Assembly: GCA_031254335.1 (NCBI GenBank)
Contig: JAIRUP010000011.1
Location: 9,199 to 73,198, forward strand
Origin: Rickettsiales bacterium
GTDB taxonomy: Bacteria; Pseudomonadota; Alphaproteobacteria; Rs-D84
Direction of reading: 5' to 3'
DNA: 64,000 nucleotides
Each line of letters begins with the position of its first letter. Position 1 is the first letter of the stretch. Under the pieces are notes generated by a model that did not search any database, was not told the origin of the DNA, and saw only the letters and a program-made list of their open reading frames with translations. The position numbers and the translations under genes were made by a program. Below are positions 7,412 through 51,153 of this stretch, one piece after another.

Positions 7412-8464
7412 TTATTGCTCATAAAGGCTTTCCGTGTCAATAAGTTGTCCGCCGTAATACAATTCGAAATGCACATGCTGCGCGACATGGTTCCCGTAAT
7501 GCGGACGCACATCCTGCGTCGTTCCGATTACTTCGCCCGCGCCGACATGGTCGCCCACATTCAGGCCGTCCCGCGCGCGGACATAAAGCATGCGCGCCTG
7601 GCTGCCGTTGTCGTTCTGTATAACCACCTGCGCCAAACTCGGGTCGCTTGCATACACACGCGAAATTCGGACAATTCGGCCGCTGAAAAACGAGGGCATC
7701 GCCGTTCCGGGCGCGGGCGGACGGCCACCCGGCATTATGTCCGTTCCCGCATGGTCGCGGTTGCCGTGTCCGCGCCTTGCGCCGATATGTCCGTCGCCTC
7801 CGCCCCATTGCGGGCCGCGGATGGCTATATTAAATCTGCGGATGACTTCAAGCGCGACTTCGCGCGCGCCGCTGTTCCAAAGAGGGGTATTTTCTATTGG
7901 AACGACCTGCCGCCTTTGGCCCGGGCGCACCGTTATGGATTCGGGATGGAAGCGATTGCCTTGGCGCGTAGTCGGGCGCGTCGGCCTTGCCGCCGCCGGT
8001 CTTTCGACTTCCGGCGCGATTTCGGCCCGGATGTCCGGGACCGTTCCCGCCGTCATCGCGCTTTCTATAAATCCGTCCGGCAATCTTATGTCCCCGGACA
8101 AGCGCACCACGCGGCGCACATCCTCCGCCGGGACTTTTATGCGGCGGCAGGCGATTTCCTCGAAATCATGCGCCGTGCCGTAAAGCACCGCCATAAGCGG
8201 CCTGATAAACGACAGGACAACGAACATCAAGGTGAGGTTCCGCAAATTGTTCACGATATTCATTTTCGAGCCGCGAATCAGCGCAATCGCCCAGCCCGCA
8301 AGCAGCAGGCCCGCGATTATATAAAGCAAAACCTGGAATTCGCCTAGAAACTCGAAAACGCTATTGATAAAGCAGCCGCGGTCGCTTACGAAAAAATCGC
8401 CGCCCACGATTTCGGCTTGGACCCCGCTTTCCCATAAATGCTGCAAGATTTGGTCGTTCGTCAT
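7412..8464 (-). CDS. Membrane-anchored M23 family metallopeptidase
   Basis: 350 aa. Two hydrophobic helices near aa 45-95. C-terminal M23 motifs HAGTD and HVHFE. Confidence 0.8.
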   Translation of the reverse strand: MTNDQILQHLWESGVQAEIVGGDFFVSDRGCFINSVFEFLGEFQVLLYIIAGLLLAGWAIALIRGSKMNIVNNLRNLTLMFVVLSFIRPLMAVLYGTAHDFEEIACRRIKVPAEDVRRVVRLSGDIRLPDGFIESAMTAGTVPDIRAEIAPEVERPAAARPTRPTTRQGNRFHPESITVRPGQRRQVVPIENTPLWNSGAREVALEVIRRFNIAIRGPQWGGGDGHIGARRGHGNRDHAGTDIMPGGRPPAPGTAMPSFFSGRIVRISRVYASDPSLAQVVIQNDNGSQARMLYVRARDGLNVGDHVGAGEVIGTTQDVRPHYGNHVAQHVHFELYYGGQLIDTESLYEQ

Positions 8465-12629: not shown

Positions 12630-12705
12630 TGGTGGATGGTGAGGGACTCGAACCCCCGACCCTTTCGATGTAAACGAAACGCTCTACCAACTGAGCTAAC
12701 CATCC
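12630..12705 (-). tRNA. tRNA-Val (anticodon UAC), CCA encoded
   Basis: Reverse complement GGATGGTTAGCTCAGTTGGTAGAGCGTTTCGTTTACATCGAAAGGGTCGGGGGTTCGAGTCCCTCACCATCCACCA folds as a cloverleaf: 7-bp acceptor stem, anticodon loop TTTACAT, TTCGAGT T-loop. Confidence 0.9.
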
Positions 12706-18504: not shown

Positions 18505-19341
18505 ATGATGGATTATGTGAATAAAGTCTTTAACGAAGATGTGATGGAAACCCTCAAAAGGATTCCTGACAATTCCGTCGCAATGATTTTTGGCGACCCT
18601 GATTATAATGTCGGCATAAACTATGCCGGCGCGAGATACACAAAAAAATGGAACGACTATATCGATTGGTATATCGCATTGACGAAAGAATGCATGCGCG
18701 TGTTAAAGCCGGACGGAAATTTATTCATGCTAAATTATCCTAAGCAAAATTCATATCTGCGGGTAAAGTATCTTGACGACAATGCATATTCGGTGAACGA
18801 TTATGTTTGGGTTTATAATTCCAATGTGGGGATGTCGAACAATAAACTAACGACGGCGCACAGGTCGCTGCTGCATGCCACAAAAAGCAAGAATAACAAA
18901 TTTTACAAAGACGCTGTCGCTGTTCCATATCAAAATCCGACGGACAGGCGGATTATGCGAAATATCGCAAATGGAAGCAAAGGCAGAATGCCGTATTCCT
19001 GGTTCTATTTTGATTTGGTAAAGAATGTATCCAAAGAAAAAACCTTTCATTCCTGCCAAATCCCGCAAAAGATGGTTGAAATGCTTATAAACGCGACGAC
19101 TGTTGAAAATGATTTGGTGCAAATCCTATTCGGAGGTTCCGGCGGGGAAATCATTTTGGCGAAAAATATGAATCGCCGATTCGTATCCAGTGAAATTCAC
19201 AAGCCTTATTTCGATTTGATAACAAAACGATTGGAATCAGGCGGAGATATTCCAAAAGTTCTTAAATTAAATTTGCACAAGAACAGAAAAGTGGATGACA
19301 AAACAAATTTATTTAATGAAAAATTGTTATTGGTGGCTTAA
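18505..19341 (+). CDS. DNA methyltransferase (N6-adenine/N4-cytosine, beta class)
   Basis: 278 aa. Motif IV FGDPDYN (DPPY-type) precedes motif I FGGSGG. Markedly AT-rich relative to neighbours. Confidence 0.85.
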   Translation: MMDYVNKVFNEDVMETLKRIPDNSVAMIFGDPDYNVGINYAGARYTKKWNDYIDWYIALTKECMRVLKPDGNLFMLNYPKQNSYLRVKYLDDNAYSVNDYVWVYNSNVGMSNNKLTTAHRSLLHATKSKNNKFYKDAVAVPYQNPTDRRIMRNIANGSKGRMPYSWFYFDLVKNVSKEKTFHSCQIPQKMVEMLINATTVENDLVQILFGGSGGEIILAKNMNRRFVSSEIHKPYFDLITKRLESGGDIPKVLKLNLHKNRKVDDKTNLFNEKLLLVA

Positions 19342-19343
19342 TA

Positions 19344-19796
19344 ATGGCCACCATACATTTCATGCACGGATTCATCGCTTGTGGCAAAAGCACTTATGCC
19401 AAAAAGCTGGCGCGGGAGCTTGGAATTCCAAGGGTCGCGCGGGACGATATTTGTATGGAAATCAAAGGCAGGCCGATATTCGAGTTCGACACCGAGACGC
19501 GGAGAGAACTTATGGACATGACCCGCGCCAGGGTTGCGGAAATCGTCAAGGACGGCAAGGATGTCGTTTTCGACATGGGCAACTGGACGCGGGCTTCGCG
19601 CGACGAAAACAGGAAATGGGCGAAGTCCCTGGGCGCGGATTATAAATTTTACAGCATGAAATGCACGCCGGAAACCGCATTGAAAAGGTCGGCGGCGCGC
19701 GATGACGGATACCCGCCGGAGCGTTTCGCCGAACAATTCAAACGGTTCGAGCCCATGCAGGCCGACGAGGAATTCGTGGAAGTTGATTCGGAATAA
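19344..19796 (+). CDS. P-loop kinase-like ATP-binding protein (AAA_33/zeta-toxin-like fold)
   Basis: 150 aa. Walker A GFIACGKST at the N-terminus. Starts 3 nt after the methyltransferase stop. Confidence 0.65.
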   Translation: MATIHFMHGFIACGKSTYAKKLARELGIPRVARDDICMEIKGRPIFEFDTETRRELMDMTRARVAEIVKDGKDVVFDMGNWTRASRDENRKWAKSLGADYKFYSMKCTPETALKRSAARDDGYPPERFAEQFKRFEPMQADEEFVEVDSE

Positions 19797-22044: not shown

Positions 22045-22659
22045 GTGGCTATGATTCCACCGGGCTTTGTCATGTCCAGGATTTTGGCGCTTGTTTTGGC
22101 CGCCATGCTTAGCGTCGCGTTCGCCCTTTGGCTTGCTTTGGACAGCCTGTTCCCGCTATCGAAAAAGCAGATTTTCTTCATGGCCGAACAGGAGCGCTTC
22201 ATAACCGTCGCCCCTTATTTCCCGAACACCAAAAACCTTGAACAATTCAAGGAAAACTTCATTCGGCAATACATCAACGAACGGCTTAGCATTCTTCCAA
22301 ACGCCGCCGCCATGGCGCGCAGATGGGGCGCGGCGGGGCGCGTCCGCGCCTGGTCCAGCCCGGAAGTTTATCGCGAATTCTCCGCCGAACCCATGACAGC
22401 CGCCGTTTTGCAAGCGGAACCCTTTTGGTCGACCCGCATTTATTTCCTTGGAAATCCGACGCCAAGGGGCCAGGACCGCTATGCCGTCGGCATCAGAAAA
22501 ATAAGTGAATTAGACACTGGACAGACCGAGGCAAAAATCTTTACAATAATCCTTAGGTTAGAGTTCCAAAGCGACATGGTCGTCAGATGGGAAGACAGGC
22601 TTAAAAACCCATTCGGCGTAGTCGTTTCAGAATTCCGAATTGAAGAGGCATCAGAATGA
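22045..22659 (+). CDS. virB8: VirB8-like (TrbF/ComB8-type) T4SS inner-membrane protein
   Basis: One N-terminal TM helix, FIRQYINERLS-type segment, and the VirB8 signature NPFG near the C-terminus (RLKNPFGVVVSEFRI). GGGAG Shine-Dalgarno lies 6 nt before GTG 22045 (ATG 22051 is an alternative). Confidence 0.7.
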   Translation: MAMIPPGFVMSRILALVLAAMLSVAFALWLALDSLFPLSKKQIFFMAEQERFITVAPYFPNTKNLEQFKENFIRQYINERLSILPNAAAMARRWGAAGRVRAWSSPEVYREFSAEPMTAAVLQAEPFWSTRIYFLGNPTPRGQDRYAVGIRKISELDTGQTEAKIFTIILRLEFQSDMVVRWEDRLKNPFGVVVSEFRIEEASE

Positions 22660-24146
22660 AAAAAATATTCGCGCTTATCGCCTTGGCGGCCTGCTGTTTT
22701 TCGGCGCAGGTCGCTTCGGCAAATTTCGGCGTTCAGGCGGCTTGGGACAATCCCGAAGCCAACATGGCCCCCGGAAGCGTCAAGCCCGGATACGCCCAGC
22801 TTAGCTGGTCGCCCGGAACAATCCTTACCATCCGCCTGCGGAACGGAATGGTGACCATGATTAACCTTCCCGAGGGCGAGGAAATCGCGACCGCGGACAT
22901 CGGAAACAGCGGCCTGTTCGAAATACCCGACAACCTTCAAGGCAAACGCTCGTTCATGGTTACACCCATGCCCGACAACCAAGGGTCCGACACAAACCTG
23001 ATTGTCGTCGGACGGTCCGGCAACAAGTATGTGTTCTATCTGCGCTCGGAACCCGCGAACTCTTCCGAAATCACTTATTCGCAGGTCGATATTTCAGTCG
23101 AGGGCCAGCGCGGCGCGCTGGGCGCGGCGCGGAACGGCGGCGGCATGGCCTCGCTTACCAGCAAGCCCGTTTCCAAGGGCGGTGTCAGTTTCGACGGCGA
23201 CGATTACAGCTGGATTAAAAGCATGAAAATCGACCCGTCCGAATTCCGCTTCGACCTGGACATCTTCGTCCCGAACCCGGACGACTATGTCATCGCGCCC
23301 GAACGCGTTTGGCGCGACAGGATTTTCACCTATATCGATTTCGGCGACAAGGTAATCGCAATGACCCAGCGGCCAGTCGTCAGCGTTCTTATCGAGGGCG
23401 GCGAGTCCCCGGTCGGATTCCGAACCGACGGACCCGACGGACGGCTGCTGATTGTCGAAGCCGTCGGCGACATGGTTCTTCGCTCCGGCCAACGCATAGT
23501 CTGCATCAAGAAACGCGCGAAACCGTTCCTGATTTCCAACAGCGCGCAGGTCATGGCTTTGGCCGAGGCCAATGTCGTCAGCCGCATGAACGCCGGAATG
23601 TCATTCAACAGTTCGGTCTATGGCGGCGTGCCGATGGGCGACATGGGAATTGGCATGGGCGGATTCGACAATTCATGGCAGGGCGGCGGAATGGGAATGA
23701 TGCCCGCGAACATGATGTATGGCGACCCTTCGATGATGGACACGGGAAGCAACAATGTATTCATGCCGGGCGGCGGCTCCGCTCCGCGCGTGACGGCGGG
23801 CGCGTATCTGCCCAACCGGGACATCCCCATTGTTTCAAGCAACCAAAAGGGCGTTGCGGTGGAACTGCAATCGGATACTTCGGTGAAAGCACTGAACGAT
23901 TATTGGAACAAGCTGCTTGCGAAGTTCTCGTCCGACACCGGCCAGGGAATTCTCGCGCCGTATGCTTCCAAGGTGTTTTTCGCGGTTGACGAGCAGGGAG
24001 TCGGCTCGCTCGGGACCGGCACGGCGACCGGGCGGCTGTATCGCCTTCGCATAGGGCCGATGTCCGGGATAGACGAGGCGCAGACGCTTTGCAATCAGCT
24101 TGCCAAATTCCAAGGCACCGCGTGCAATGTCGTCCGAATACAATAA
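22656..24146 (+). CDS. virB9: VirB9-like (TrbG/ComB9-type) protein with Gly/Met-rich linker and C-terminal SPOR domain
   Basis: Signal peptide; N-domain (ILTIRLRNGMVTMINLPEGEEI..NLIVVGRSGNKYVFYL); C-domain (PERVWRDRIFTYIDFGD..VVSVLIEGGESPVGFR..GRLLIVEAVGDMVLRSG). The last ~98 aa have the SPOR pattern (LYRLRIGPMSGIDEAQTLCNQL). ATGA overlap with the virB8-like gene. Confidence 0.78.
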   Translation: MKKIFALIALAACCFSAQVASANFGVQAAWDNPEANMAPGSVKPGYAQLSWSPGTILTIRLRNGMVTMINLPEGEEIATADIGNSGLFEIPDNLQGKRSFMVTPMPDNQGSDTNLIVVGRSGNKYVFYLRSEPANSSEITYSQVDISVEGQRGALGAARNGGGMASLTSKPVSKGGVSFDGDDYSWIKSMKIDPSEFRFDLDIFVPNPDDYVIAPERVWRDRIFTYIDFGDKVIAMTQRPVVSVLIEGGESPVGFRTDGPDGRLLIVEAVGDMVLRSGQRIVCIKKRAKPFLISNSAQVMALAEANVVSRMNAGMSFNSSVYGGVPMGDMGIGMGGFDNSWQGGGMGMMPANMMYGDPSMMDTGSNNVFMPGGGSAPRVTAGAYLPNRDIPIVSSNQKGVAVELQSDTSVKALNDYWNKLLAKFSSDTGQGILAPYASKVFFAVDEQGVGSLGTGTATGRLYRLRIGPMSGIDEAQTLCNQLAKFQGTACNVVRIQ

Positions 24147-24152
24147 GGAGGG

Positions 24153-24311
24153 ACAAAAAATCCAAACTCGGTTTTTCGTTTTCGGATTAAATCCCCGAAT
24201 GACACATCGAAAAACCACCCGTCGCGGCGGCGTTACAGGCCAGACGCCGGGTGGTTTTTCTTGGTCCTCGACGATTTCCTCTCGAAAACGCGACCTCGCT
24301 AGGATTTTTTG
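24153..24311 (+). repeat. Extended hairpin element E1 (~150 nt) plus T-tract, between the virB9-like and virB10-like genes
   Basis: Outer arms AAAAAATCC/GGATTTTTT, conserved blocks TTTTCGTTTTCGG and CTCGAAAACGCGA, central 13-bp stem GAAAAACCACCCG/CGGGTGGTTTTTC, then TTTTTTGAG. Confidence 0.65.
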
Positions 24312-24335
24312 AGTTATTTATAAGGCAAGGCAGAA

Positions 24336-26666
24336 TTGAGCAAGATAACGCAATATTTTCAGAATGTAAAAAAGTCCAGTCCGGCTTTGATGCGCTGGGC
24401 GCTGCTTGGCATCGCCGCCATGCTGCTTGTCATATTCATTTTCGTTATATTGCCCGGGACGAAAAATCCGCAGGGGACGCCATCCAATACCGCCTCGAAC
24501 ATAACCGCCAGGCCGGAATCCGCGACGCTTGCGGGAACGGTCGGACAGGAAACCAAGGTCGCAATCGAAATTTCTTCCGCCAATGAAATCGAGATTTTCG
24601 ATGTTCGTTTGGAATCCGTGGACAGCGGCCTTAAAATGAACAATACATGCGCCAGCCTTCAACGAATATCGAAAGACATCCCGTGCCAAGTCAATTTGAC
24701 ATGGACGCCCGCGTCCGAAACAGTCGGCAGGTCCGCGAAGGTTCTTATCGAATACGGCGCGGTCGGCGCGCCGAAAGACGCGGCGATTACGCACGCGATT
24801 TTGGTTTCCATGAACGCGGATGCAAAGGAAGAAGTAATAATAGAAGAAAAATTTTCAGAATCCAAACCGTCGGAAGAAGATATTATCGCGGACTTCTTGA
24901 AGGACGATTCCCCCGCGCCTGTTCAGAATGAAGAATCATTCGAAGACGATTATGCCGACGACGATTTTTCGGACGACGGCCTTTCGGGCGGCTATGATTA
25001 CGACGACGGCGCGGCTTTGACATTCGACGATTCCATCGTTCCGGACGACGGCGACGCGTGCTATCGCTTCGCTTTCGTCGGATACAATGTGTCCGGGCAA
25101 AAGGCCGGATGGATTCGCCCGCACAAAGGCCAATATCTTTTCCATCCGTTTTCCGACACCAAATGCAAAAAGCCGACCGGCATATATAATATGGACACCG
25201 GCTTCATACACGACATCAAGGACCGCTCGAAGAAAATCGGCTCGGATGCCGAACGGGTCCGCGACGCCCGGACGCTTCGCCGCAATATCCAAGTCCCAGA
25301 GCTTAGCAATCCGCCGCAGCAAAAGCAGGTGAATCGCGCGCAGCAATTGACGGGCGACCTTCCCGCCGCCGCGGGCGGCCATGTAAGTTTGGTTTCCACA
25401 TCGCCGGAACGAAGCGAGCTTGTGCCGTCTTCAAAGAGCGGAAACGACGCCATCATTTCTTCCGCAAAACCGTATGACCGCAGGTATGTCCTTCGCCAGT
25501 TCAAGCCCATTCCCGCCACAATAGTAAGCGACATTCGCGTGGACCAAAGGATTCACGACCTTCCCATCGTCGCAACCGTGGAACGGAATGTCTATTCCGA
25601 CAACGAGCGCACCATAATAGTTCCCGTCGGAACAATGCTGCTTGGATATGTCGACGACACCGTCAATCTTCCCGGACCTTATAAAACCATCGGCCGCATA
25701 ACCGTCTGCTGGTATCAGATGATACGGCCCGACGGCGTCGAATTCCATTTGGGCAACGATTGCAGCGTTTATGCCGCCGACAGCCAAGGGCGCGTAGGCG
25801 TGCCGGGCCGCGGCTCGACCGATTACTTGGAAGAAATAGTCATTCCGATGGCGGCGGGTTTGGTTCCCGCGGCGGTCAATCTTGTCGCGCCGATTTCAGA
25901 CCGCTTTGTAAATCAAATCGACCTTAACAACAACACCGTCACCCAAAGCGGGCAGATGCGTTCGAGCGAACTTGCAAAGCAGGAAATCATAAAGTCGTGG
26001 GACAAGGTTTCGCAACGCCTTTTCATGGACATGATGGACAACCTGACGCCGCCTTTCACGATTCCCGCCGGCACGCGCATAACCGTCCTTTCAAGCAAGG
26101 ACCTGATAGTCAACTGGGACAGCGACAAACTTGGCGACGGCAACGCCTATACCCCCAAACCGACCAAGCGCGGGACGCCTCCCAATTTCTCGCAGAACAA
26201 GGAAGAGCTTGTCGGGCAGGTAAGGTCGACGACGGTCGGTCCCGACGGCAAGATTATCTATGACACGCAAAGCCCGTTCCTTCAATCCTTTATGAACCAG
26301 GCCAACCAATACCAATCCCAATATCAGGCCCAGCAGGGCGCGTATTGGAACCAGCAGAACACCGCCGCCGCGCAGGGCAATGTCGACGAATGCGGCAACA
26401 ATAGGTATCTTAACCTGCGGTATATTCCGGGAACCTGCACCATAATGAGCCCGTCGGCCAAGGCCCCGGCACCCGTTCAGGCAATGGAAGACGCGATGTA
26501 TGGCGGAAACCTTACGGCCGGGCCGGGCGGACTTATGTGCGACGACGGAACGCCGCCGGATACATACGGCTGCTGCCCAAGCGCGGGCGAAGAGTTCGTG
26601 AACGAAGACGGCGGGATTTGCTGTTTGATTTCCAGCCCCGACGAATGCTTCCCGCCCCTAATGTAA
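24336..26666 (+). CDS. virB10: VirB10-like (TrbI/ComB10-type) protein with long N-terminal extension and Cys-rich C-terminal tail
   Basis: 776 aa. TM helix near aa 20-40 and an acidic low-complexity region. TrbI/VirB10 core (IPATIVSDIRVD..IVATVERNVYSD..IIVPVGTMLLGY..RPDGVEFHL..DSQGRVGVPG). The last ~90 aa contain 9 Cys. Confidence 0.75.
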   Translation: MSKITQYFQNVKKSSPALMRWALLGIAAMLLVIFIFVILPGTKNPQGTPSNTASNITARPESATLAGTVGQETKVAIEISSANEIEIFDVRLESVDSGLKMNNTCASLQRISKDIPCQVNLTWTPASETVGRSAKVLIEYGAVGAPKDAAITHAILVSMNADAKEEVIIEEKFSESKPSEEDIIADFLKDDSPAPVQNEESFEDDYADDDFSDDGLSGGYDYDDGAALTFDDSIVPDDGDACYRFAFVGYNVSGQKAGWIRPHKGQYLFHPFSDTKCKKPTGIYNMDTGFIHDIKDRSKKIGSDAERVRDARTLRRNIQVPELSNPPQQKQVNRAQQLTGDLPAAAGGHVSLVSTSPERSELVPSSKSGNDAIISSAKPYDRRYVLRQFKPIPATIVSDIRVDQRIHDLPIVATVERNVYSDNERTIIVPVGTMLLGYVDDTVNLPGPYKTIGRITVCWYQMIRPDGVEFHLGNDCSVYAADSQGRVGVPGRGSTDYLEEIVIPMAAGLVPAAVNLVAPISDRFVNQIDLNNNTVTQSGQMRSSELAKQEIIKSWDKVSQRLFMDMMDNLTPPFTIPAGTRITVLSSKDLIVNWDSDKLGDGNAYTPKPTKRGTPPNFSQNKEELVGQVRSTTVGPDGKIIYDTQSPFLQSFMNQANQYQSQYQAQQGAYWNQQNTAAAQGNVDECGNNRYLNLRYIPGTCTIMSPSAKAPAPVQAMEDAMYGGNLTAGPGGLMCDDGTPPDTYGCCPSAGEEFVNEDGGICCLISSPDECFPPLM

Positions 26667-28885: not shown

Positions 28886-29755
28886 ATGAGCGACGCAATT
28901 TTCATAGACATCGGGTCAAGCACCATCAAGGTTTATTCCAAATCCGCGGACGGCGCGCTGGATTTGACCGACGAAAAATCGATTCTTTTCAAGGACGGAT
29001 TCACGCAGGACGCCGGCGTCGCGGCGCACAATATAGACGCGCTGCTGGAATACTTGGAACAATGGCGCGGGCGGAATGTCCGAACTTTCGCAACGGGAAT
29101 TTGGCGCGAGCTCCCGGCCGCGCAGGCGAAAAGCCTTGGCGAAAACAGCCCCGTCGGATTCAATATAATTTCGCACGACGACGAGGCGCGCTATCTGAAA
29201 CAGGCCGCGGACCTGCCGTTCGCCGGCAAGAAGGCAATGGTTATAAACATGGGCGGCAAAACCACAGAAATCGTTTCCGTTCTGCCAAACTTTGATACCA
29301 AGACGCAGCTCTTAAAAATCGGCGTCGCGGACTTGCTGAACCAATTCCCGAATGTGAACGAGGAAATCTCCGGCGCGAGCATCGAAGAGATGGAAAAATT
29401 CGTCCGCGACAAACTGGACGCCGAACAATTCGACACCGATTACGACTTCGCGCTTTTCACGGGCGAGCTGCGGTTCGAGAAGCTGTCCGGCTATCCATTG
29501 GAACCGAACGCGCAGTTTTCCGAAGCCAACCATCCGTTCCAAGTTTCAATCGACGGCTTCATCATTGGCACGCGCAGGATATTCTTCGACATGACGATGT
29601 CGGAACTTCGCGCGCTTATGCCGAAAAATCCAAACTGGATGAGCGGCGCGCGGCCTGGCGCGGTTCTTCCGCTTGCGATTTTCAACCGCGCGAAAATCAA
29701 AGCCATCGTTCCCAGCGACTTGAATCTTATCAACGGAGTTGTCAAAGATTTCTAA
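28886..29755 (+). CDS. ASKHA-superfamily (Ppx/GppA- or actin-like ATPase) protein
   Basis: 289 aa. The N-terminal phosphate-1 motif FIDIGSSTIKVY and a later NMGGKTTE resemble Ppx/GppA-type nucleotide-binding folds. Confidence 0.5.
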   Translation: MSDAIFIDIGSSTIKVYSKSADGALDLTDEKSILFKDGFTQDAGVAAHNIDALLEYLEQWRGRNVRTFATGIWRELPAAQAKSLGENSPVGFNIISHDDEARYLKQAADLPFAGKKAMVINMGGKTTEIVSVLPNFDTKTQLLKIGVADLLNQFPNVNEEISGASIEEMEKFVRDKLDAEQFDTDYDFALFTGELRFEKLSGYPLEPNAQFSEANHPFQVSIDGFIIGTRRIFFDMTMSELRALMPKNPNWMSGARPGAVLPLAIFNRAKIKAIVPSDLNLINGVVKDF

Positions 29756-32700
29756 AATCTGTAAGATATTCCGGCGCGGGCGTTGAAGCCGTTTATCTCG
29801 TCGCTTGACCGCAAGGAAAACTTCGCGTCCAAAGTCAAAGATTCGCGGACGCTTCCGACCATTCCGAAACCATATTCGAAATACGAGCCGACCATTCCCA
29901 ATTTCGGCTGCTCCATTTCGCCGATTCTGTTTTTGGAGTCGCCGGACAGGTTCCAATTATAAAGCCCGGAAAGAAAAACATTCACCGATTCCATCCCGAA
30001 TATCAGCGCAAGGCCCGGCGCGACATTCGCGCCGTCCACATAGCTTGAATACATTTCTATATCGCCGTAATTCGACATCCATTCGCGCCCGCCGAAGTGG
30101 TTGTAAGACGCCATAAAATTCGGCTGGACAATCGTGTATCTCATCACGCGCATGTCATAGGCGATTTTTCCCGCCGCGCCGACGAACCAGTTGTCGACGG
30201 AATCCTTCGCGCCCCCGACATCAATCTCGGTGTTATAGAATCCGTTATACGCCATAAGCGCGCCGATGAATTTCCCGTTCGTCCAGGTGCTTTGGATTCC
30301 GATTTGCCCGCCGTTCTGCGTCATTTCGACGCCGCTCCATCTCTGTTTGCCGCCGTTATAGGCCATGTAGAGCGTCGGCACCCATCGCCAGCTTTTTTCC
30401 CCGCCAATCAGGACGGACGCGGTGTCCAGGCCCGCGATTATTCCGTATAAATTGCTGTCCGCCTCGTCCAAGCCGCCGCCAAGTTTCAGTTTTTCCGCGC
30501 CGCCATAGGCCTTGACCCAGACGCCCTTCTGGTGTTCCTGGAACTGCCACGGCGCATACTTGCACATCAGGCATTCGTCGCTGTCAAGGAACACATGGTC
30601 GAACATGACGCCCGCGACAAGACCCTGCGACAGCATCATCGCGTTCGTCGATACCCCGCCGCGCAAGGCCTGCGGATTTCCGCCTTGCAGCCGAAGCTCG
30701 TAATTTCCGCTTCCAAGCGACACAAGCGAATATTCCCCCGCCGGAGTCATTATGGAATCCGCCGACGCCGCGAACATAATCGCGGGGTCGTAGTTCGGCG
30801 AGCTCATTATATTGAACGGCACGACCGCCGAGCGCGGAGAATTCAGCAAATTGATTTCATCCAGCATGACAACCGCGTCCATCGCGTAAATGTCGGCTAT
30901 GCCCGACGCCGGGTCGCCGTTCACTATCAATTCGCCCGGCGCCGCCGTTCCGCTGAAAACAAACTGGTCGGAGCGCGCGTTCCGCGCGTCCAAATCCACC
31001 GAGAATTTCGCAATGCTGTTCACCGGATTGTCCAAGACCGAAAAGATTGCGAACTTGCCCGCGAAATTGTGCGTTTGGATTGCTCCGTCCATCGAATTCA
31101 CAAGCGCGTTGTCGCCCATGACAAGCGCGCCGCTGGTTGCGATGTATGTTCCGCCGCCCGCGCCGACATTAAGGGCGACATTGTTTATGAACAGCGTGGA
31201 ATCCGACAGGACCAAGTCGCCGCCCGTAAGTCCGCCGCTTGGCGCAAGGCCTTTGACATAGGCGACCGCGTTGTTGCCGATTACCGTGACTCCGCCCGTT
31301 TTTTGCAGCACATCCGAATAGACGGCAAGCCCCGCGCCCCGGGCGACAATATAACCGTCGCTTTGATTGACTTTGCCGAATGTTCCGCCCGACGACGCGG
31401 GCATGGAATCGGTCGGATTCAGCCAAATCGCGCCGCCCGCGATGTCCAGGAATCCCGTCGAATACAGATTAATCGTCGCCGATTCCCCGATTATGTCGCC
31501 CGGATTCAACTTCAAGCCGCCGTATATGTTGACGGTGCCGCCGGTTATGTTCATGACCGCGCTGTCCAGCTTGTCGGCGTTCAGATGCCAGTTCAGGATT
31601 CCGCTTTGGATGTTGTTCGTTCCGCCGAAGAACATTCCGTAAGCATCGACGATTCCATTGGTCTGCAAGAATTCGCCGAGATAGTTCGAGTTGTCCGCCG
31701 ATTCCGCCAATATGAAATCCGCCGGACTATGCTTGGCGATTAGCGCGCCGGCCGTTCCCGCAATGCCGCTGCCGAAGAACAGAATCCCGCCGGTGGAAAT
31801 CAAGGTTATCGTTCCCGCGTTGTATATGTCGTTCGCGCCGGTGCTGTCGGCATTCCCGCTGAAAATCATGTTCGCGCCCTGCGCGACGCTTATGTCCAGC
31901 TGGCTTCCCGCCGCGTTGTAAATCGCGCCGCCAAGGCCGCCCGCCGTATTGCCCGTGAAGTTCATGTCGTGGTCGCCCGAATATATCGCCGTGGTTTCGG
32001 ACGAACTTGACGAGTCGTGGTAAATCGCGCCGCCGTTCCCGCCCGCGCTGTTTCCGACGAAGGAACCGCCGTGCTTGTTTATAGTCCCCGTATTGTAAAT
32101 CGCGCCGCCGTCGCCGCCCGCGGAATTATTCGTGTAATCCAGATTGGTGCTTGTCGTGCTTCCCGCCGCGATGTTCGCCGCGCCGCCGTTCCCGGTCGAG
32201 CTGTTGTTTTGCAGCGCAAGGTTCGAAAGCGTCGCGCTTGAACTTGCGTTGTCCATATAGATGACCGCGCCGCCGCGGCCGGAAGAATCCAAGGCGTCCC
32301 GAACGGTCAAATCCTGCAATGTGAAATATGTATCGTCGTTCTCGATGTCGAACAGGGACTGCCCGGTTTCGCCGTCCGTCGAATTCAATCCCGACAGAAC
32401 GGCCGTTCTTGTTCCGGCAACCGCGCCATGGACCGAGAATGTCCCGTCGGCCATAACTCCCAAATCCCCGTCGTTCTGATAAATTTCCGCCGCGCCGATT
32501 TGCCACGAGCGCGCGACCGCGTCCGACATCCCGGCCGCCGCCGCATTCGAATCAAGCTCGTTCACATCGTTCAGCACAAGGACAAGGGACGACGGATTGT
32601 TCGGAACGCTAATCATTCCCGTCGATGTCCCGCCCGGATTCGTAGTCGTCGAGGCCGTGCCGCCGTTAGGGTCGGTCGTGCTTGAACCGCCGCCGTTCGG

Positions 32701-35496
32701 GTCCGTGGTCGTAGTGGTCGAGCCGCCGCCGTTCGGGTCGGTCGTGTTTATCGTCGTGTCGCCGCCGGGATTCGTGTTTATCGTTGTGCCGCCGCCGCTT
32801 GGCGGGACTATGGTCGTGGTCGTTCCGCCGTTCCCATCCGGGCCCACATCGACCGTCGTGCCGTCGGGCAGGGACGCGCTTCCGCTGCCGCCCGCCGGGA
32901 CATCGACGACCGTTCCGCCCGGCTCGCTTGTTATGGTGCTGTTTCCGTCCGGGTCGGTCACAACCGTTATCGTGTTGCCCGCGCCGTCGTCCGTCGTGCT
33001 TGCGGAGCTTCCGTCGGGATTCGTCGTCGTAGTCGTCGTGCTTCCGTCCGGGTTCGTCGTGGTCGTAGTCGCGCCGCCGCTCGGGTCGGTCGTCGTAGTC
33101 GTGGTTCCGCCGCCCGGATTGTTCGTGGTCGTCGTCGTGCCGCCGCCGGAATCCACGGCGGACGAAGAGCTTCCCGAACCGCCCCCGCCGCTGGGCACGC
33201 TGTCAAGCTGGACATACTGGTTGTTCACGGTCGTAATCGTGTATGTTCCGTTGGAAGTCGCGACGAACTGCGACAAGCCGTTTTGGAAATCCAGGACATC
33301 GCCGTATATTATGCGCATGGTTCCGGTAATAAGGCCGTCCGCGTCATTCACATAAATTTTCCCCAGATAATTTATCGTGCCTCCGCCGTTCGCGACATTC
33401 AGCGAGTCCGCCGAAAGCCCGCCCTGGTTATTTCCGATTTTGAACGAAAGCGACGCGGTCGCGTCGGCCCCAAGATTCAAGAAATTATACTGCTGGTAAT
33501 TCGCCGACGAATTCGCAAGGTCTATAAGCGAGCCGTTGTAAAAACCGTAAGCCGTGCCGCCGGTATAATCGGCGCTTCCCAATATGACGCCGCTATTATT
33601 GAAGCCGATAGAGTTCGACTGCCCGTTCGATATGTCGTTTTGCAGATTGTAAAGCGCGCCGCCCGGCATGCCCGCATTGAATCCGACCGTCGCGCCGCTT
33701 CCCATGAAATTTATGCCCGCGTCCGCGATGGCCGCGGCCCGGCTTATGGAAATCCTGTTGCTGGACACGGCCGTGAAGTTCATGGCCGAATCCGACAGCA
33801 TATCGGCGTTGAAATAGAATGTATCCTGGCTGCTGCTTACATTCGCCGTGCCGCCGATATTGTTTTGCCCGCCGAACATAAGGCCCTGAACATTGACGAC
33901 GGCCCCGGCCGCATTGTTGAAGACTCCCGCGAAGCCCGTGCTTTGACTGGCCGCGTTCAGGTTCAGGGTGGTGCCGGATTCCTGATTTATGGTTCCTATG
34001 CCCGCGATTCCGTCGTTTATGTTCACGGTGCCGCCGCCGGTTATGTTTATGGCGGCGGTCGCCGAATCCTGGTATATTCCGGGGCCGTTCGCAAAACCCG
34101 CCGCATAATTGTTCAGGAAATTTATTCCGCTTGCGCCGGTATTCAGATTAATCACTCCGTTCCCGGAATTGTAAATCGCACCGCCGAACAACGCGCCGTT
34201 CGCGTCGAACAATGTCCCGTCCGCTATGTTCACGACGCTTGTCCCCGGATAATTGTTCCCGGAAGTATTGTAAATCGCGCCGCCGCCACCGCTTGCATAG
34301 TTGTTCGTGAAGCTGCCTGAAATATTTACGACTATATCGGCCTGGCCCGCCTGGATATTGTTGTAAATCGCGCCGCCGAATCCGGCCGACTTGTTGCTGT
34401 CGAACGGCCCCGATATATCGAATGTTATATTTCCGCCGTAAGGCGAATACTGGTCGCCGACCGCATTGTAAATCGCGCCGCCCTGCGCCGCTACATTGGA
34501 ATAGAACGAGCCGACCAAATTCACATTAACGGCGGTGTTTCCGCCGTTTATTTCGGTCGCAACCGCGCCGCCGAACGCGGCCTGGTTCTGTGTGAAGACG
34601 CCGCCCGCAATATCGAAATTGTTCGCGGCGGGGGCGTTTCCATTCAGGACTCCGTTATAAACCGCGCCGCCCATGCCGGCCGCATAATTCTGGTAATAGG
34701 TATAGCCCTGTGCGCTGAAATCGTTCGACACGCCCGCGCCGCCCGCGTTATTGCCCATGAAATAAATCGCGCCGCCGTTCTGGGACGCCCTGTTCATCGC
34801 CAGATAATGCCCGTTCGTCCCGGTGTCGTCCACAACCGCAAATGTTCCGCCGCCGTTCTGCGAATTGTTCGACGCCATATAGACCGCGCCGCCGCTTGCC
34901 GCGGCATTGTTTGCGAAGTCGTTGTCGGTCAGAACATACGAATTGTCGCCGCCGCTTTGCATTTGGGAATTCACGGACACCGCCGCGCCGTTCGCAGACG
35001 ACGAGTTGTTATAGAAATAAGTTCCCGCGACCGTAAAATTATGATTGCCAATACCGTTTCCCGCAAATGCAACCGCGCCGTTCGCCGCGCCATAGACCGT
35101 AAGATTCGAGATGCTCGCGCTTATGTCGTTATTCCAGCCGGGCGCGAAGGCAAGGGTATATCCCCCCATAATCAGCGCGGTTCCGTCCGGCGTTCCTCCA
35201 TAACTGTTTATGCTTAGGGCGGGGCCGGAAAACGGATTCAGCGCGTTCGCCAGAATTATTCCGTAATCGCCTTTGGAATCGATGGCGGTTCCGACGACCG
35301 TTATCGAGCCATCGCCGCCGTTCCACGCGTCCGCAAAGTCCGCGGAAGTCGCGGCATCCGCCGCGTCCGCCGCGCGGACCAAGCAAAAACATACCATGCC
35401 CGACAATAATACGGCCGAGAATCTCATGATTAATAATATAAAAAAACGGCGCGGAATTTTATAGGTAGCTATTCTCAGATTAATTTCCCTTTCCAT
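29752..35496 (-). CDS. Autotransporter adhesin with polymorphic-membrane-protein (PMP) repeats
   Basis: 1914 aa. Dozens of GGA(I/V)Y(N) and FxxN motifs. Central Thr/Gly/Asn/Pro-rich block (TTTTTNPDG-like repeats). C-terminal beta-barrel ending ISYRF. The signal peptide probably starts at Met-24 (35427). Confidence 0.85.
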   Translation of the reverse strand: MEREINLRIATYKIPRRFFILLIMRFSAVLLSGMVCFCLVRAADAADAATSADFADAWNGGDGSITVVGTAIDSKGDYGIILANALNPFSGPALSINSYGGTPDGTALIMGGYTLAFAPGWNNDISASISNLTVYGAANGAVAFAGNGIGNHNFTVAGTYFYNNSSSANGAAVSVNSQMQSGGDNSYVLTDNDFANNAAASGGAVYMASNNSQNGGGTFAVVDDTGTNGHYLAMNRASQNGGAIYFMGNNAGGAGVSNDFSAQGYTYYQNYAAGMGGAVYNGVLNGNAPAANNFDIAGGVFTQNQAAFGGAVATEINGGNTAVNVNLVGSFYSNVAAQGGAIYNAVGDQYSPYGGNITFDISGPFDSNKSAGFGGAIYNNIQAGQADIVVNISGSFTNNYASGGGGAIYNTSGNNYPGTSVVNIADGTLFDANGALFGGAIYNSGNGVINLNTGASGINFLNNYAAGFANGPGIYQDSATAAINITGGGTVNINDGIAGIGTINQESGTTLNLNAASQSTGFAGVFNNAAGAVVNVQGLMFGGQNNIGGTANVSSSQDTFYFNADMLSDSAMNFTAVSSNRISISRAAAIADAGINFMGSGATVGFNAGMPGGALYNLQNDISNGQSNSIGFNNSGVILGSADYTGGTAYGFYNGSLIDLANSSANYQQYNFLNLGADATASLSFKIGNNQGGLSADSLNVANGGGTINYLGKIYVNDADGLITGTMRIIYGDVLDFQNGLSQFVATSNGTYTITTVNNQYVQLDSVPSGGGGSGSSSSAVDSGGGTTTTTNNPGGGTTTTTTDPSGGATTTTTNPDGSTTTTTTNPDGSSASTTDDGAGNTITVVTDPDGNSTITSEPGGTVVDVPAGGSGSASLPDGTTVDVGPDGNGGTTTTIVPPSGGGTTINTNPGGDTTINTTDPNGGGSTTTTTDPNGGGSSTTDPNGGTASTTTNPGGTSTGMISVPNNPSSLVLVLNDVNELDSNAAAAGMSDAVARSWQIGAAEIYQNDGDLGVMADGTFSVHGAVAGTRTAVLSGLNSTDGETGQSLFDIENDDTYFTLQDLTVRDALDSSGRGGAVIYMDNASSSATLSNLALQNNSSTGNGGAANIAAGSTTSTNLDYTNNSAGGDGGAIYNTGTINKHGGSFVGNSAGGNGGAIYHDSSSSSETTAIYSGDHDMNFTGNTAGGLGGAIYNAAGSQLDISVAQGANMIFSGNADSTGANDIYNAGTITLISTGGILFFGSGIAGTAGALIAKHSPADFILAESADNSNYLGEFLQTNGIVDAYGMFFGGTNNIQSGILNWHLNADKLDSAVMNITGGTVNIYGGLKLNPGDIIGESATINLYSTGFLDIAGGAIWLNPTDSMPASSGGTFGKVNQSDGYIVARGAGLAVYSDVLQKTGGVTVIGNNAVAYVKGLAPSGGLTGGDLVLSDSTLFINNVALNVGAGGGTYIATSGALVMGDNALVNSMDGAIQTHNFAGKFAIFSVLDNPVNSIAKFSVDLDARNARSDQFVFSGTAAPGELIVNGDPASGIADIYAMDAVVMLDEINLLNSPRSAVVPFNIMSSPNYDPAIMFAASADSIMTPAGEYSLVSLGSGNYELRLQGGNPQALRGGVSTNAMMLSQGLVAGVMFDHVFLDSDECLMCKYAPWQFQEHQKGVWVKAYGGAEKLKLGGGLDEADSNLYGIIAGLDTASVLIGGEKSWRWVPTLYMAYNGGKQRWSGVEMTQNGGQIGIQSTWTNGKFIGALMAYNGFYNTEIDVGGAKDSVDNWFVGAAGKIAYDMRVMRYTIVQPNFMASYNHFGGREWMSNYGDIEMYSSYVDGANVAPGLALIFGMESVNVFLSGLYNWNLSGDSKNRIGEMEQPKLGMVGSYFEYGFGMVGSVRESLTLDAKFSLRSSDEINGFNARAGISYRF

Positions 35497-39255: not shown

Positions 39256-39363
39256 TGAGGTTTGTCCTTATGTTATTGAATTTATTGTCAATAATAAACT
39301 AAAAATAACATAATTCAAGAAATATTATATTGATAATAATTCCCAGTTTGATATAATACTTTC

Positions 39364-39501
39364 GATACGAGGAGTTCTCGCGTCGGGGAGTCAAAGACCT
39401 CTTGGAAACTCTTGCCTTTGGCAGGAGGGTAGCGAAAGCTACACTATTTCCAATAGTCTTTGAACCTCCTGCCACTTTCTTCGAGAGTGGCTTTTTCTTT
39501 T
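39364..39501 (+). ncRNA. Structured RNA element A (riboswitch-like leader or sRNA)
   Basis: Follows TTTGATATAAT (39347..39357). Helices: GAUACGAG/CUCGCGUC, AAAGAC/GUCUUU, UUGCC/GGCAG, GUAGC-GAAA-GCUAC, and CUAU/AUAG with loop UUCCA pairing to UGGAA. CCUCCUGCC is complementary to GGCAGGAGG. Terminator GCCACU..AGUGGC+U5. Homolog at 50973..51112. Confidence 0.6.
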
Positions 39502-39520
39502 AACCGAACAGGAGGAATTC

Positions 39521-39673
39521 ATGGAATACAAAAAAGCGCCCGCCGCGCATACGGTCGTGAAGGAACTGAAAAAACTCATGGATAGGATGAGGAACGACAT
39601 GGTGTTCCTTGCGATGGTGGAAAGCATATTGGAAAAAACCGACGAACGCTGGACCCCGCCAAAGAAGAAATAA
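39521..39673 (+). CDS. 50-aa hypothetical protein downstream of RNA element A
   Basis: AGGAGG Shine-Dalgarno 6 nt upstream. MEYKKAPAAHTVVKELKKLMDRMRNDMVFLAMVESILEKTDERWTPPKKK. Confidence 0.4.
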   Translation: MEYKKAPAAHTVVKELKKLMDRMRNDMVFLAMVESILEKTDERWTPPKKK

Positions 39674-50664: not shown

Positions 50665-50690
50665 GTCCATTATAATGGACACTTTATTTT
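50665..50690 (+). terminator. Palindromic hairpin GTCCATTATAATGGAC plus T-rich run
   Basis: Read directly, 30 nt after stop 50634. Same design as 572..591. Confidence 0.55.
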
Positions 50691-50952
50691 ATGCCGGTTC
50701 GGCGCTGGCTTTGACCTTCGGATAAAGCGCGGCGAATTCCATAAAGTCGGTATCCGTCGCTTTCAGCATTCTTGCAATCGTCTCCATTTTGGGCCATGAC
50801 ATGACCGTTTTGCCGCTCTTGCTTTTGACCACCCTTCTGCACGGATTGAATATCGTGCCGTCCAAACCCGACAATCTCGCCAATCTGAACGGACTCATAT
50901 TTTTGGTCTTTGCGAACAGGTCTATCATGGCCCATATTTCATCGTGCGTCAT
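50689..50952 (-). CDS. Small HTH (XRE/phage-repressor-like) regulator, paralog of 14097..14333
   Basis: Starts at MTHDEIWAMIDLFAKTKNMSPFRLARLSGLDGTIFNPCRR, with a GGAG Shine-Dalgarno upstream. The longer track ORF start (51015) would run through a terminator. Confidence 0.65.
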   Translation of the reverse strand: MTHDEIWAMIDLFAKTKNMSPFRLARLSGLDGTIFNPCRRVVKSKSGKTVMSWPKMETIARMLKATDTDFMEFAALYPKVKASAEPA

Positions 50953-50972
50953 TGAGGTTTCTCCTTTTGCGC

Positions 50973-51112
50973 AAAGAAAAAGCCACTTTATAAAAAGTGG
51001 CAGGAGGTTGAACAACTATCAAAACAATAGCGTAGCTTTCGCTACCCTCCTGCCGAAGCAGAAGTTGTTTTGAGAGGTTGTTCACACCCCGACGCGGACA
51101 GCCGTTCGCGTC
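50973..51112 (-). ncRNA. Structured RNA element B (homolog of element A)
   Basis: Follows TTTGATATAAT (51119..51129, minus). Identical core GGCAGGAGGGUAGCGAAAGCUAC and AACCUCCUGCCACUU. The other helices are changed in a compensatory way (GAACAAC/GUUGUUC, CAAAACA/UGUUUUG, UCUGC/GCAGG). Terminator GCCACUUU..AAAGUGGC+U5. Confidence 0.6.
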
Positions 51113-51153
51113 AAAATCATTATATCAAATCAGGAATTTTTATCAATATAAAT

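Follow-up and report, generated by a model that had tools for sequence, protein, structure and literature searches.

A 64,000-nt stretch of contig JAIRUP010000011.1 from a Rickettsiales bacterium (assembly GCA_031254335.1), referred to here in its whole length as the window, contains two copies of an RNA element of about 135 nt each: copy A at 39364-39501 on the plus strand and copy B at 50973-51112 on the minus strand. Reading both loci confirmed the positions given in the original prediction, which had been made from the sequence alone. The copies are 84% identical over promoter, RNA and terminator, and their similarity is confined to these parts, setting in near -45 and ending with the T-tract; the window holds no copy beyond A and B. 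Each is preceded, as had been predicted, by the same promoter (TTGATA and TATAAT separated by 16 nt, with an upstream TG), which matches the sigma-70 consensus at 11 of 12 positions in both. The TATAAT box is also present in most of the homologues described below, and the transcription start (about 39364 in copy A) was placed from the -10 spacing alone. Each copy ends in a terminator hairpin of 8-9 bp plus five T residues (GCCACTTTCTTCGAGAGTGGC in copy A, GCCACTTTTTATAAAGTGGC in copy B), and a gene with a strong Shine-Dalgarno sequence follows about 20 nt further on, again in agreement with the prediction; the open reading frame (ORF) begins about 45 nt past the CCUCCUGCC box in both cases. 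The genomic setting is chromosomal for both copies. Copy A lies between an arginase-family gene on the minus strand and a small ORF followed by RNase E/G, and copy B lies between a PEBP-family gene and an 87-amino-acid ORF, adjoining a gene for an AMP-binding enzyme. The source organism is rare: apart from the source itself, a single public run (SRR14710927) contains its proteins.

Both copies have unusually stable predicted folds (z-scores of -5.4 for A and -7.5 for B, with none of 200 shuffled sequences folding as well). The minimum-energy fold comprises helices P1 to P5 and the terminator (Table 1); P2 is extended by pairing of a G-box with the CCUC of a downstream strand, D, and P4 is formed by an upstream strand, U, and a middle strand, M. 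M, P5, D, the G-box, the C-box and a short CUAU/AUAG hairpin (Px) are identical in A and B, and the differences between the copies are concentrated in P1, P2, P3 and U. All of the pairings originally listed are present, and where the copies differ in them the changes are compensatory. One of these pairings (UGGAA/UUCCA) had been described as a loop-to-upstream pseudoknot; the pairing stands, but the minimum-energy fold has it as a nested helix, P3, which is pseudoknotted only relative to Px. Px itself covaries in homologues. Two segments have alternative partners: the G-box can pair with the C-box, in a co-transcriptional hairpin, or with the first 4 nt of D, and M can pair with either the upstream (U) or the downstream (D) copy of CCUCCUGCC. 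The stepwise minimum-energy path runs through P1, the G-box/C-box hairpin, U:M, P5, P3, P2 and the terminator. P5 is closed by a GNRA loop in the window copies and by GAAUAUAUUGAAUAA in most relatives, and in copy A two A residues separate the 3' strand of P2 from D.

About 50 homologues were recovered from at least 15 metagenome-assembled genomes (MAGs), all of them from uncultured gut (including termite and rumen) Alphaproteobacteria. A first scan of one genome per species with the pattern GGCAGGAGG-N20-50-AACCTCCTGCC returned 86 loci, about 24 of which are true relatives, the remainder being chance hairpins. The true relatives reside in MAGs that carry the label Alphaproteobacteria, Rickettsiales or Proteobacteria; the sources were human, rabbit and rumen gut as well as the gut of termites or cockroaches. 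In metagenomes, this pattern identified about 15 more members; among viral contigs it gave two chance matches and no family member. A full-length covariance model built from 25 sequences (R1) found copies outside the search pattern, namely second copies on the same contig (L081, L035 and L065) and tandem copies (L073 and L138). Several MAGs hold two to four copies, and two sequence flavours occur on single contigs. In a test independent of the pattern, contigs fetched via a small downstream protein family carried the RNA upstream in three of three loci.

Covariation was assessed in an alignment of 47 members (A3). Helices of the default state are paired in 94.5% of cells, against 74.8% in shuffles and 39-51% in slid controls, and their covariation score is 0.586 against 0.200, a value reached by none of 500 shuffles. 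For each pair of P1, P2 and P5, 10-26 sequences carry double changes. P3, which is not alignable by column, was examined with a permutation test, in which cognate strands gave runs of 7.0 bp against 4.0 +/- 0.16 bp (maximum 4.6) for non-cognate ones. The helices of the alternative state are paired in 95.4% of cells; they too are matched by none of 500 shuffles and exceed all slid controls. Within this set, both Px (UA 28, AU 13, CG 2; AU 39, GC 4) and the G-box/C-box hairpin (GC 20, AU 13, GU 11) covary. M:D is paired in 100% of cells and U:M in 92.6%, the latter tolerating wobbles and end mismatches. In addition, rare variants indicate that U, M and D change together: L081b and L035b have M GGUUGGAGG, U CUCCAACC (or CCCCCAACC) and D CCUCCAACC, L073a has M GGCGGGAGA with D UCUCCCGCC, and L138b has M GGCAGGAUG with D CAUCCUGCC; one G-U case among the M:D variants is found in L215. 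The loops of P1 (NNUU) and P5 (GAAUA..AAUAA) are conserved in the family, and RNAalifold on the 3' modules alone gives a three-way junction of M:D, P5 and Px. A structured RNA with covarying helices had been predicted, with a covariance-model search of genomes and metagenomes as the proposed check; that search found further homologues, and heavy covariation in P1, P2, P3, P5, Px and the G-box/C-box hairpin bears the prediction out.

Some members depart from the usual arrangement. Free-standing M-P5-Px-D modules without a 5' domain occur in tandem, directly after the terminator of a full element, at L073:553-654 and L138:449-510. In L138 the module shows a compensated flavour of its own (GGCAGGAUG/CAUCCUGCC) and continues into a Shine-Dalgarno sequence and ATG without a terminator. 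Two members lie back to back in L065 (7579-7728 on the minus strand and 7838-8000 on the plus strand), and their promoters diverge at a distance of about 110 nt; M of the second is a variant, GUCAGGAGG, and this copy is truncated where the locus ends. In 45 of 46 members the nucleotide after the M:D stem is a purine, and many members have RCC(A) there (ACU at 39474-39476 in the window, ACC in many relatives and GCCA or ACCA in some). This resembles a tRNA acceptor end, although the pattern may simply reflect the terminator stem. The P1 C4 and P4 CI RNAs are RNase P substrates.

A canonical intrinsic terminator is present in 41 of 46 members, and in all 41 its stem includes the last 2-4 nt of D, which form the G-C pairs adjoining the U-tract in a stem that is otherwise A/U-rich. 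The mean free energy (dG) of the terminator is -9.4 kcal/mol with the D nucleotides and -3.1 kcal/mol without them. Since the stem needs the end of D, locking D into the 9-bp M:D helix should disable the terminator, and M:D is a credible antiterminator. In two members without a terminator (L173 and L125), D reads CCUCCUG and is complementary to the CAGGAGG Shine-Dalgarno sequence of the gene; free D would there mean OFF and M-bound D ON, giving the same polarity at the level of translation. Sequestration of the downstream Shine-Dalgarno sequence by D in all members was rejected, complementarity to CAGGAGG being found in about 8 of 35, roughly the chance rate; such sequestration is plausible just for the two members that lack a terminator. 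In 29 of 34 scorable members, the distance from D to the start of the first ORF is 37-54 nt, a fixed spacing that argues for a cis-acting leader rather than a free-standing small RNA (sRNA) gene. The original prediction had singled out CCUCCUGCC and GGCAGGAGG as a switch pair sharing GCC with the terminator and had proposed attenuator logic; three-way covariation and the dependence of the terminator on D sustain both proposals.

On balance, and with moderate confidence, we regard each element as the 5' leader of its downstream gene and as an attenuator, which would terminate transcription conditionally. According to the proposed mechanism, a strong constitutive promoter would start the RNA at the P1 hairpin, and the G-box/C-box hairpin would be the first to form on the emerging RNA, followed by U:M (P4), P5, P3 and P2. 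In the OFF state D would not be bound by M, and its last 2-3 nt (GCC) would provide the G-C base of a weak, A/U-rich terminator; RNA polymerase would stop and a small RNA of about 130 nt would be released. In the ON state M would pair with D, creating a three-way junction (M:D, P5 and Px) and removing the base of the terminator, so that transcription would read through into the ORF about 20 nt downstream. We infer both that regulation takes place at termination and that the switch has this direction; the predicted default is OFF, with a factor needed for ON.

The whole window contains only one Rfam match at gathering cut-off, a tRNA (12633-12705, minus strand, 70.5 bits). The original statement that the element matches no Rfam family therefore holds at threshold, but its 3' junction is a distant homologue of sRNA-Xcc1 (RF02221), recognized reciprocally and below the cut-off. 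This family, whose cut-off is 53 bits, was the only recurrent match at permissive thresholds. Copy A scored 24.0 bits (E 0.04), copy B gave no match at E<=10, and the relatives L202, L150 and L126 scored 31.6-33.4 bits; the matches always span M to D and the whole model. By the gathering cut-off the window copies lie outside RF02221. They have its three-way junction, with a 9-bp closing helix and two hairpins, and lack its hairpin-1 motif GAAUAC/UA...AAUAAG, which is found in most alphaproteobacterial relatives and is replaced in both window copies by GUAGC-GAAA-GCUAC. True sRNA-Xcc1 members according to Rfam include those of a Kingella plasmid (56.4 bits), a Pasteurella plasmid (L217, 59.3 bits) and an Stx2a phage (L218, 75.7 bits). 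In the reverse direction, a model built from the alphaproteobacterial 3' modules alone (R2) matched the Stx2a phage (36.5 bits, E 4e-8), the Pasteurella plasmid (29.4 bits), an Aggregatibacter phage (L220, 27.2 bits) and a Mannheimia phage (L219, 26.9 bits) with E-values of up to 2e-5, those of our own models being rough; these four were the sole matches in 20 kb. The Kingella sRNA-Xcc1 gave a non-significant 9.7 bits with R2, and a scan of viral contigs with an Xcc1-type pattern gave no match. Both groups share GAAUA...AAUAAG in hairpin 1 and UUUCGAA-CCUCC before D. The reciprocal recognition by the models and these shared motifs indicate that the 3' module is homologous to sRNA-Xcc1.

Annotations of sRNA-Xcc1 exist for Xanthomonas campestris, Xylella, integron cassettes, and APSE and Stx phages. 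The first description is of an 88-nt sRNA whose ends were mapped, the 5' end falling at the position of M (PMC2996969). In the Xanthomonas integron cassette that is most widespread, sRNA-Xcc1 precedes symE (bioRxiv 10.1101/2025.06.18.660453), and in APSE phages it precedes an ORF6N gene (bioRxiv 10.1101/2020.03.17.996009); Xylella has seven copies (PMC12189769); none of these four papers describes a 5' domain or a cis mechanism. Like the window family, sRNA-Xcc1 forms a three-way junction with a 9-bp G-rich/C-rich closing helix (equivalent to M:D), two internal hairpins and a purine-ending linker, occurs in multiple copies, and is located 30-45 nt upstream of an ORF on the same strand. Its hairpin 1 (GAAUA...AAUAAG) corresponds to P5 of most alphaproteobacterial members, whereas the window copies have the GNRA loop instead. 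The two differ in that sRNA-Xcc1 is treated in Rfam and the literature as a trans-acting sRNA of about 88 nt, whereas the unit conserved here spans about 110-170 nt and has an additional 5' domain (P1, the G-box/C-box hairpin, the 5' strands of P2 and P3, and U) that competes with the junction, as well as a D-dependent terminator. They also differ in host clade, which is gut Alphaproteobacteria here, and in the genes that lie downstream.

A comparable 5' domain is nevertheless recognizable in the sRNA-Xcc1 loci of Pasteurella, Mannheimia, Aggregatibacter and Stx2a phages. Upstream of the part annotated by Rfam, all four have (A/G)AGG-NGU-P2 5' strand-CCU(C/U), a 5' strand for P3 with complementarity to the loop of hairpin 2, an insert hairpin and a U strand. 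Among these long forms, P3 covaries (GUACAAGG/CCUUGUAC, CUCUAAGG/CCUUAGAG, GCAAUAGG/CCUAUUGC and CUAAAG/CUUUAG), as does P2, and RNAfold predicts the same architecture for the Pasteurella locus (z = -4.6). R1 did not detect the gammaproteobacterial long forms, which are recognized there by RNAfold and by reading the sequences. The gene after sRNA-Xcc1 encodes the anti-repressor Ant in Mannheimia, where the coding sequence starts 32 nt past the match, and in Aggregatibacter, and an ORF6N protein in Stx2a phages; Bro-N and KilA-N genes follow other relatives. The Escherichia coli Stx2a version is present in 160 of 5426 complete genomes, with no non-coding RNA feature listed under the match. This comparison shows the sRNA-Xcc1 of Rfam as only the 3' half of what appears to be a longer, bistable leader. 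Our verdict is that the window elements are a distant, long-form variant of the sRNA-Xcc1 family and a putative cis-acting attenuator.

Table 1. Coordinates of the two window copies, their promoters and genes, and of the gammaproteobacterial long forms
Feature	Positions	Strand	Basis
Copy A promoter (-35 TTGATA, 16-nt spacer, TG-extended -10 TATAAT)	39330..39357	+	11/12 matches; same promoter in B
Copy A P1, 5'-terminal hairpin	39364..39384	+	Fold; 6/6 pairs covary in family
Copy A G-box GGGG (39385-88), spacer AGU, P2 5' strand CAAAGA (39392-97), C-box CCUC (39398-401)	39385..39401	+	Fold and covariation
Copy A P3 5' strand UUGGAAA	39402..39408	+	Fold; P3 permutation test
Copy A U strand CUCUUGCC, forming hairpin P4 with M	39409..39416	+	Fold and covariation
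Copy A M strand GGCAGGAGG, common partner of U and D	39420..39428	+	Pairing and covariation
Copy A P5 hairpin GUAGC-GAAA-GCUAC (GNRA)	39429..39442	+	Fold and covariation
Copy A Px arms CUAU/AUAG flanking P3 3' strand UUUCCAA, then P2 3' strand GUCUUUG	39444..39462	+	Covariation
Copy A D strand CCUCCUGCC; 9 bp with M; last 3 nt form terminator stem base	39465..39473	+	Pairing and terminator analysis
Copy A intrinsic terminator hairpin (39471-39491) and U-tract	39471..39501	+	dG -12.0 with D nucleotides, -3.4 without
Copy A gene: Shine-Dalgarno AGGAGG (39510-15), 50-amino-acid ORF (39521-39673)	39510..39673	+	No family match
Copy B promoter TTGATA-16-TATAAT	51119..51146	-	11/12 consensus matches
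Copy B 5' domain: P1 51091-51112, G-box 51087-51090, P2 5' strand 51077-51083, C-box 51074-51077, P3 5' strand 51065-51072, U 51058-51064	51058..51112	-	Fold and A/B comparison
Copy B 3' module: M 51046-51054, P5 51032-51045, Px/P3 3' strand 51013-51030, P2 3' strand 51010-51016, D 50999-51007	50999..51054	-	Pairing and fold
Copy B terminator hairpin (50982-51001) and U-tract	50973..51001	-	dG -10.2 with D nucleotides, -1.6 without
Copy B gene: Shine-Dalgarno AAGGAG (50961-66), 87-amino-acid ORF (50952-50689)	50689..50966	-	Helix-turn-helix-like by eye only
Long-form regions	L218:2395-2600 (Stx2a-converting phage Stx2_EH0505); L219:2501-2685; L220:2501-2681; L217:603-800		Covarying P2 and P3

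Inspection of the downstream genes across homologues, which the original prediction had recommended, revealed a heterogeneous and non-metabolic collection, with no common metabolite or pathway theme. About 14 encode small helical proteins (48-92 amino acids) with basic tails, which the ORF after copy A resembles. A helix-turn-helix-like group includes the ORF after copy B and its homologue, which follows the RNA in L013, as well as a protein in L022 with weak XRE/RstR-type matches. Other members precede genes for secreted Cys-rich proteins, two with a Listeria-Bacteroides repeat, and single genes encode a GT2 glycosyltransferase and a bPH_2 protein. The window ORFs and most of the downstream proteins had no match in Pfam, PHROGs or NCBIfam, PDB sequence searches found nothing for either window ORF, and a homologue search with the 87-amino-acid protein returned only itself. 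Inside the 3' end of the 50-amino-acid ORF, a terminator-like hairpin with a T-run lies on the minus strand (39639-39662) with no minus-strand gene upstream, and a gap of 343 nt separates this ORF from RNase E/G (40016).

Several observations weigh against an attenuator. In energy comparisons, which ignore pseudoknots and kinetics, the full-length terminating fold reaches -60.2 kcal/mol in copy A and -63.2 in copy B, against -48.3 and -48.0 for the M:D fold, a difference of 12-15 kcal/mol; up to D, the terminating fold is more stable by 7.4 kcal/mol on average and in 45 of 46 members. U:M also forms before D exists. Switching would accordingly need an active factor, and the analysis identified no trigger. 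D shares just 2-4 nt with the terminator, and in the gammaproteobacterial relatives it has no obvious overlap with the downstream hairpin. M and D were fixed by the search pattern in most members, which inflates their conservation, and about five independent variants underlie their covariation. Furthermore, Px and the G-box/C-box hairpin may not belong to a second state but may be pseudoknots, or intermediates in the folding of one structure. A rival reading is a static leader: all covarying helices would coexist in a double-pseudoknotted fold that stabilizes the transcript, a leaky terminator would set a fixed low level of expression, and M:D complementarity would be used solely in the free-standing three-way-junction form. 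Structural reasoning lends this some appeal, as the geometry of P2 with the G-box/C-box hairpin is that of a canonical H-type pseudoknot and the Px loop is filled by P3 in the manner of kissing loops, and the default fold is strongly favoured energetically. We nonetheless hold it to be quite improbable, because U, M and D co-vary three ways, D is always part of the terminator base, and M:D is perfect where U:M accepts wobbles and mismatches. The multiple copies and the sharp borders of the duplicated unit might be explained by a repeated or mobile DNA element, or by chance similarity, with no function at the RNA level; this is effectively refuted by the covariation statistics, given massive compensatory changes among the members from many MAGs and a strand and spacing fixed relative to the downstream ORF.

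Riboswitch logic had been among the original suggestions; in a metabolite or second-messenger riboswitch, a pseudoknotted multi-helix aptamer would bind a ligand that shifts M between U and D. With terminator/antiterminator riboswitches and attenuators the element shares a structured 5' leader whose helices exclude one another, one of them taking away part of an intrinsic terminator; in some members of the family the platform is translational instead. The element has such a covarying 5'-UTR (untranslated region) domain with an expression platform, its fold is complex and its P1 and P5 loops are conserved, its platforms are of more than one kind (terminators in the majority, sequestration of the Shine-Dalgarno sequence in two members), and several copies per genome precede varied genes. 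Cyclic di-GMP riboswitches also occur in several copies per genome before varied genes. The element differs from riboswitches and attenuators in general in having no ligand or coherent gene theme found, in that the switching strands are its most conserved parts, and in a strongly OFF default. The downstream genes lack a metabolic theme and relatives precede Ant, ORF6N, KilA-N, Bro-N and symE genes, prophage anti-repressor genes among them; the most conserved nucleotides lie in helices U, M and D rather than in junctions; and in the window copies a GNRA tetraloop takes the place of the conserved P5 loop. A metabolite riboswitch is thus unlikely, and this part of the original prediction is not favoured. 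By analogy with the P4 CI system and IsrK (PMC4825925), an RNA- or protein-mediated trigger appears more likely than a small-molecule ligand, given the U/M/D layout, the anti-repressor context of relatives and the free-standing junction modules, and the released leader could be processed or act in trans.

A trans-acting, self-addressed antisense RNA of the P4 CI, P1 C4 or N15 type is a possible, if tentative, alternative, which overlaps with the attenuator reading rather than excluding it. The terminated leader would hypothetically be processed 5' of M into an sRNA-Xcc1-like junction RNA, whose copy-specific hairpin-2 loop and linker (the 3' strands of P3 and P2) would base-pair in trans with the 5' domain of transcripts still being made from that locus and thereby set termination or read-through. 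The arrangement of U, M and D mirrors that of seqA, CI (seqB) and seqC in P4 (PMC4825925), and the 88-nt sRNA-Xcc1 starts at M (PMC2996969). In P4 CI, P1/P7 C4, N15 immA and Salmonella Gifsy-1 IsrK, as in the element, one box is complementary to an upstream and a downstream copy, and the specificity boxes covary. These phage leader systems act by premature termination before anti-repressor or regulatory genes and yield short terminated and long read-through isoforms (PMC4825925; references in PMC4488713). Relatives of the element also head anti-repressor genes, free-standing junction modules exist, genomes carry several copies with two flavours on single contigs, and differences between A and B in P1, P2, P3 and U with M, P5 and D identical are what copy-specific addresses would be expected to look like. 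On the other side, the candidate antisense segments are already paired in cis in every predicted fold, and the window loci adjoin housekeeping genes on a chromosome and are not in a prophage. In addition, pairing of the middle and downstream boxes should prevent termination in the element instead of causing it. The Rfam families C4 (RF01695) and isrK (RF01394) gave no match at E<=10 on A or B, nor at E<=0.01 on the Stx2a locus.

The original prediction had also drawn an analogy to alphaproteobacterial anti-Shine-Dalgarno sRNAs, a group that includes CCUCCUCCC-motif families. Both have repeated CCUCC-type boxes, their own promoter and terminator, and the same taxonomic setting, but the analogy fails, because the boxes of the element lie inside helices in both predicted states and the spacing to the ORF is fixed; no Rfam match to an anti-Shine-Dalgarno sRNA family was found. 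RfaH ops, ANTAR, type III toxin-antitoxin and T-box elements were considered and dropped, as their defining motifs (invariant ops, twin hexaloop hairpins, tandem repeats) are absent. Literature searches for the box sequences returned irrelevant results only, and those for RF32/riboswitch motifs nothing matching.

Elsewhere in the window, a gene for an N6/N4 DNA methylase (18505-19796), with a gene for an AAA_33 kinase-like protein after it, coincides with a dip in GC content at 18-20 kb; the methylase gene has a GC content at third codon positions (GC3) of 0.46, against about 0.7 in its neighbours, and the region was probably acquired horizontally. An ORF of 1914 amino acids (29752-35496, minus strand) has a gene-like GC3 of 0.72 and no Pfam domain match. 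CagX/VirB9-like (with a SPOR domain) and TrbI/VirB10-like genes at 22656-26666 on the plus strand indicate that a type IV secretion system is encoded nearby.

sRNA-Xcc1 has been treated in the literature as a trans-acting, virulence-linked sRNA of unclear mechanism. The long form described here precedes anti-repressor-type genes in Stx2a, Mannheimia, Aggregatibacter and APSE phages, and its presence in Stx2a-converting phages makes the proposed attenuation mechanism directly testable in E. coli, where it could bear on the control of prophage induction. A more speculative and rather unlikely extension is that the window elements and the sRNA-Xcc1 leaders of Stx2a and other prophages are self-addressed RNA switches: the terminated leader would be processed beside a tRNA-like M:D stem into a junction sRNA, whose copy-specific P3 and P2 3' strands would pair in trans with the 5' domain of the same locus only, flipping M from U to D and opening the gene. 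If true, this would be a P4/P1-style RNA immunity circuit with per-locus addressing, domesticated in gut Alphaproteobacteria for dozens of chromosomal genes for small regulators and secreted proteins. The family is a well-supported one in uncultured gut Alphaproteobacteria that Rfam does not capture, and it precedes genes for small regulators and secreted Cys-rich proteins, which it would control.

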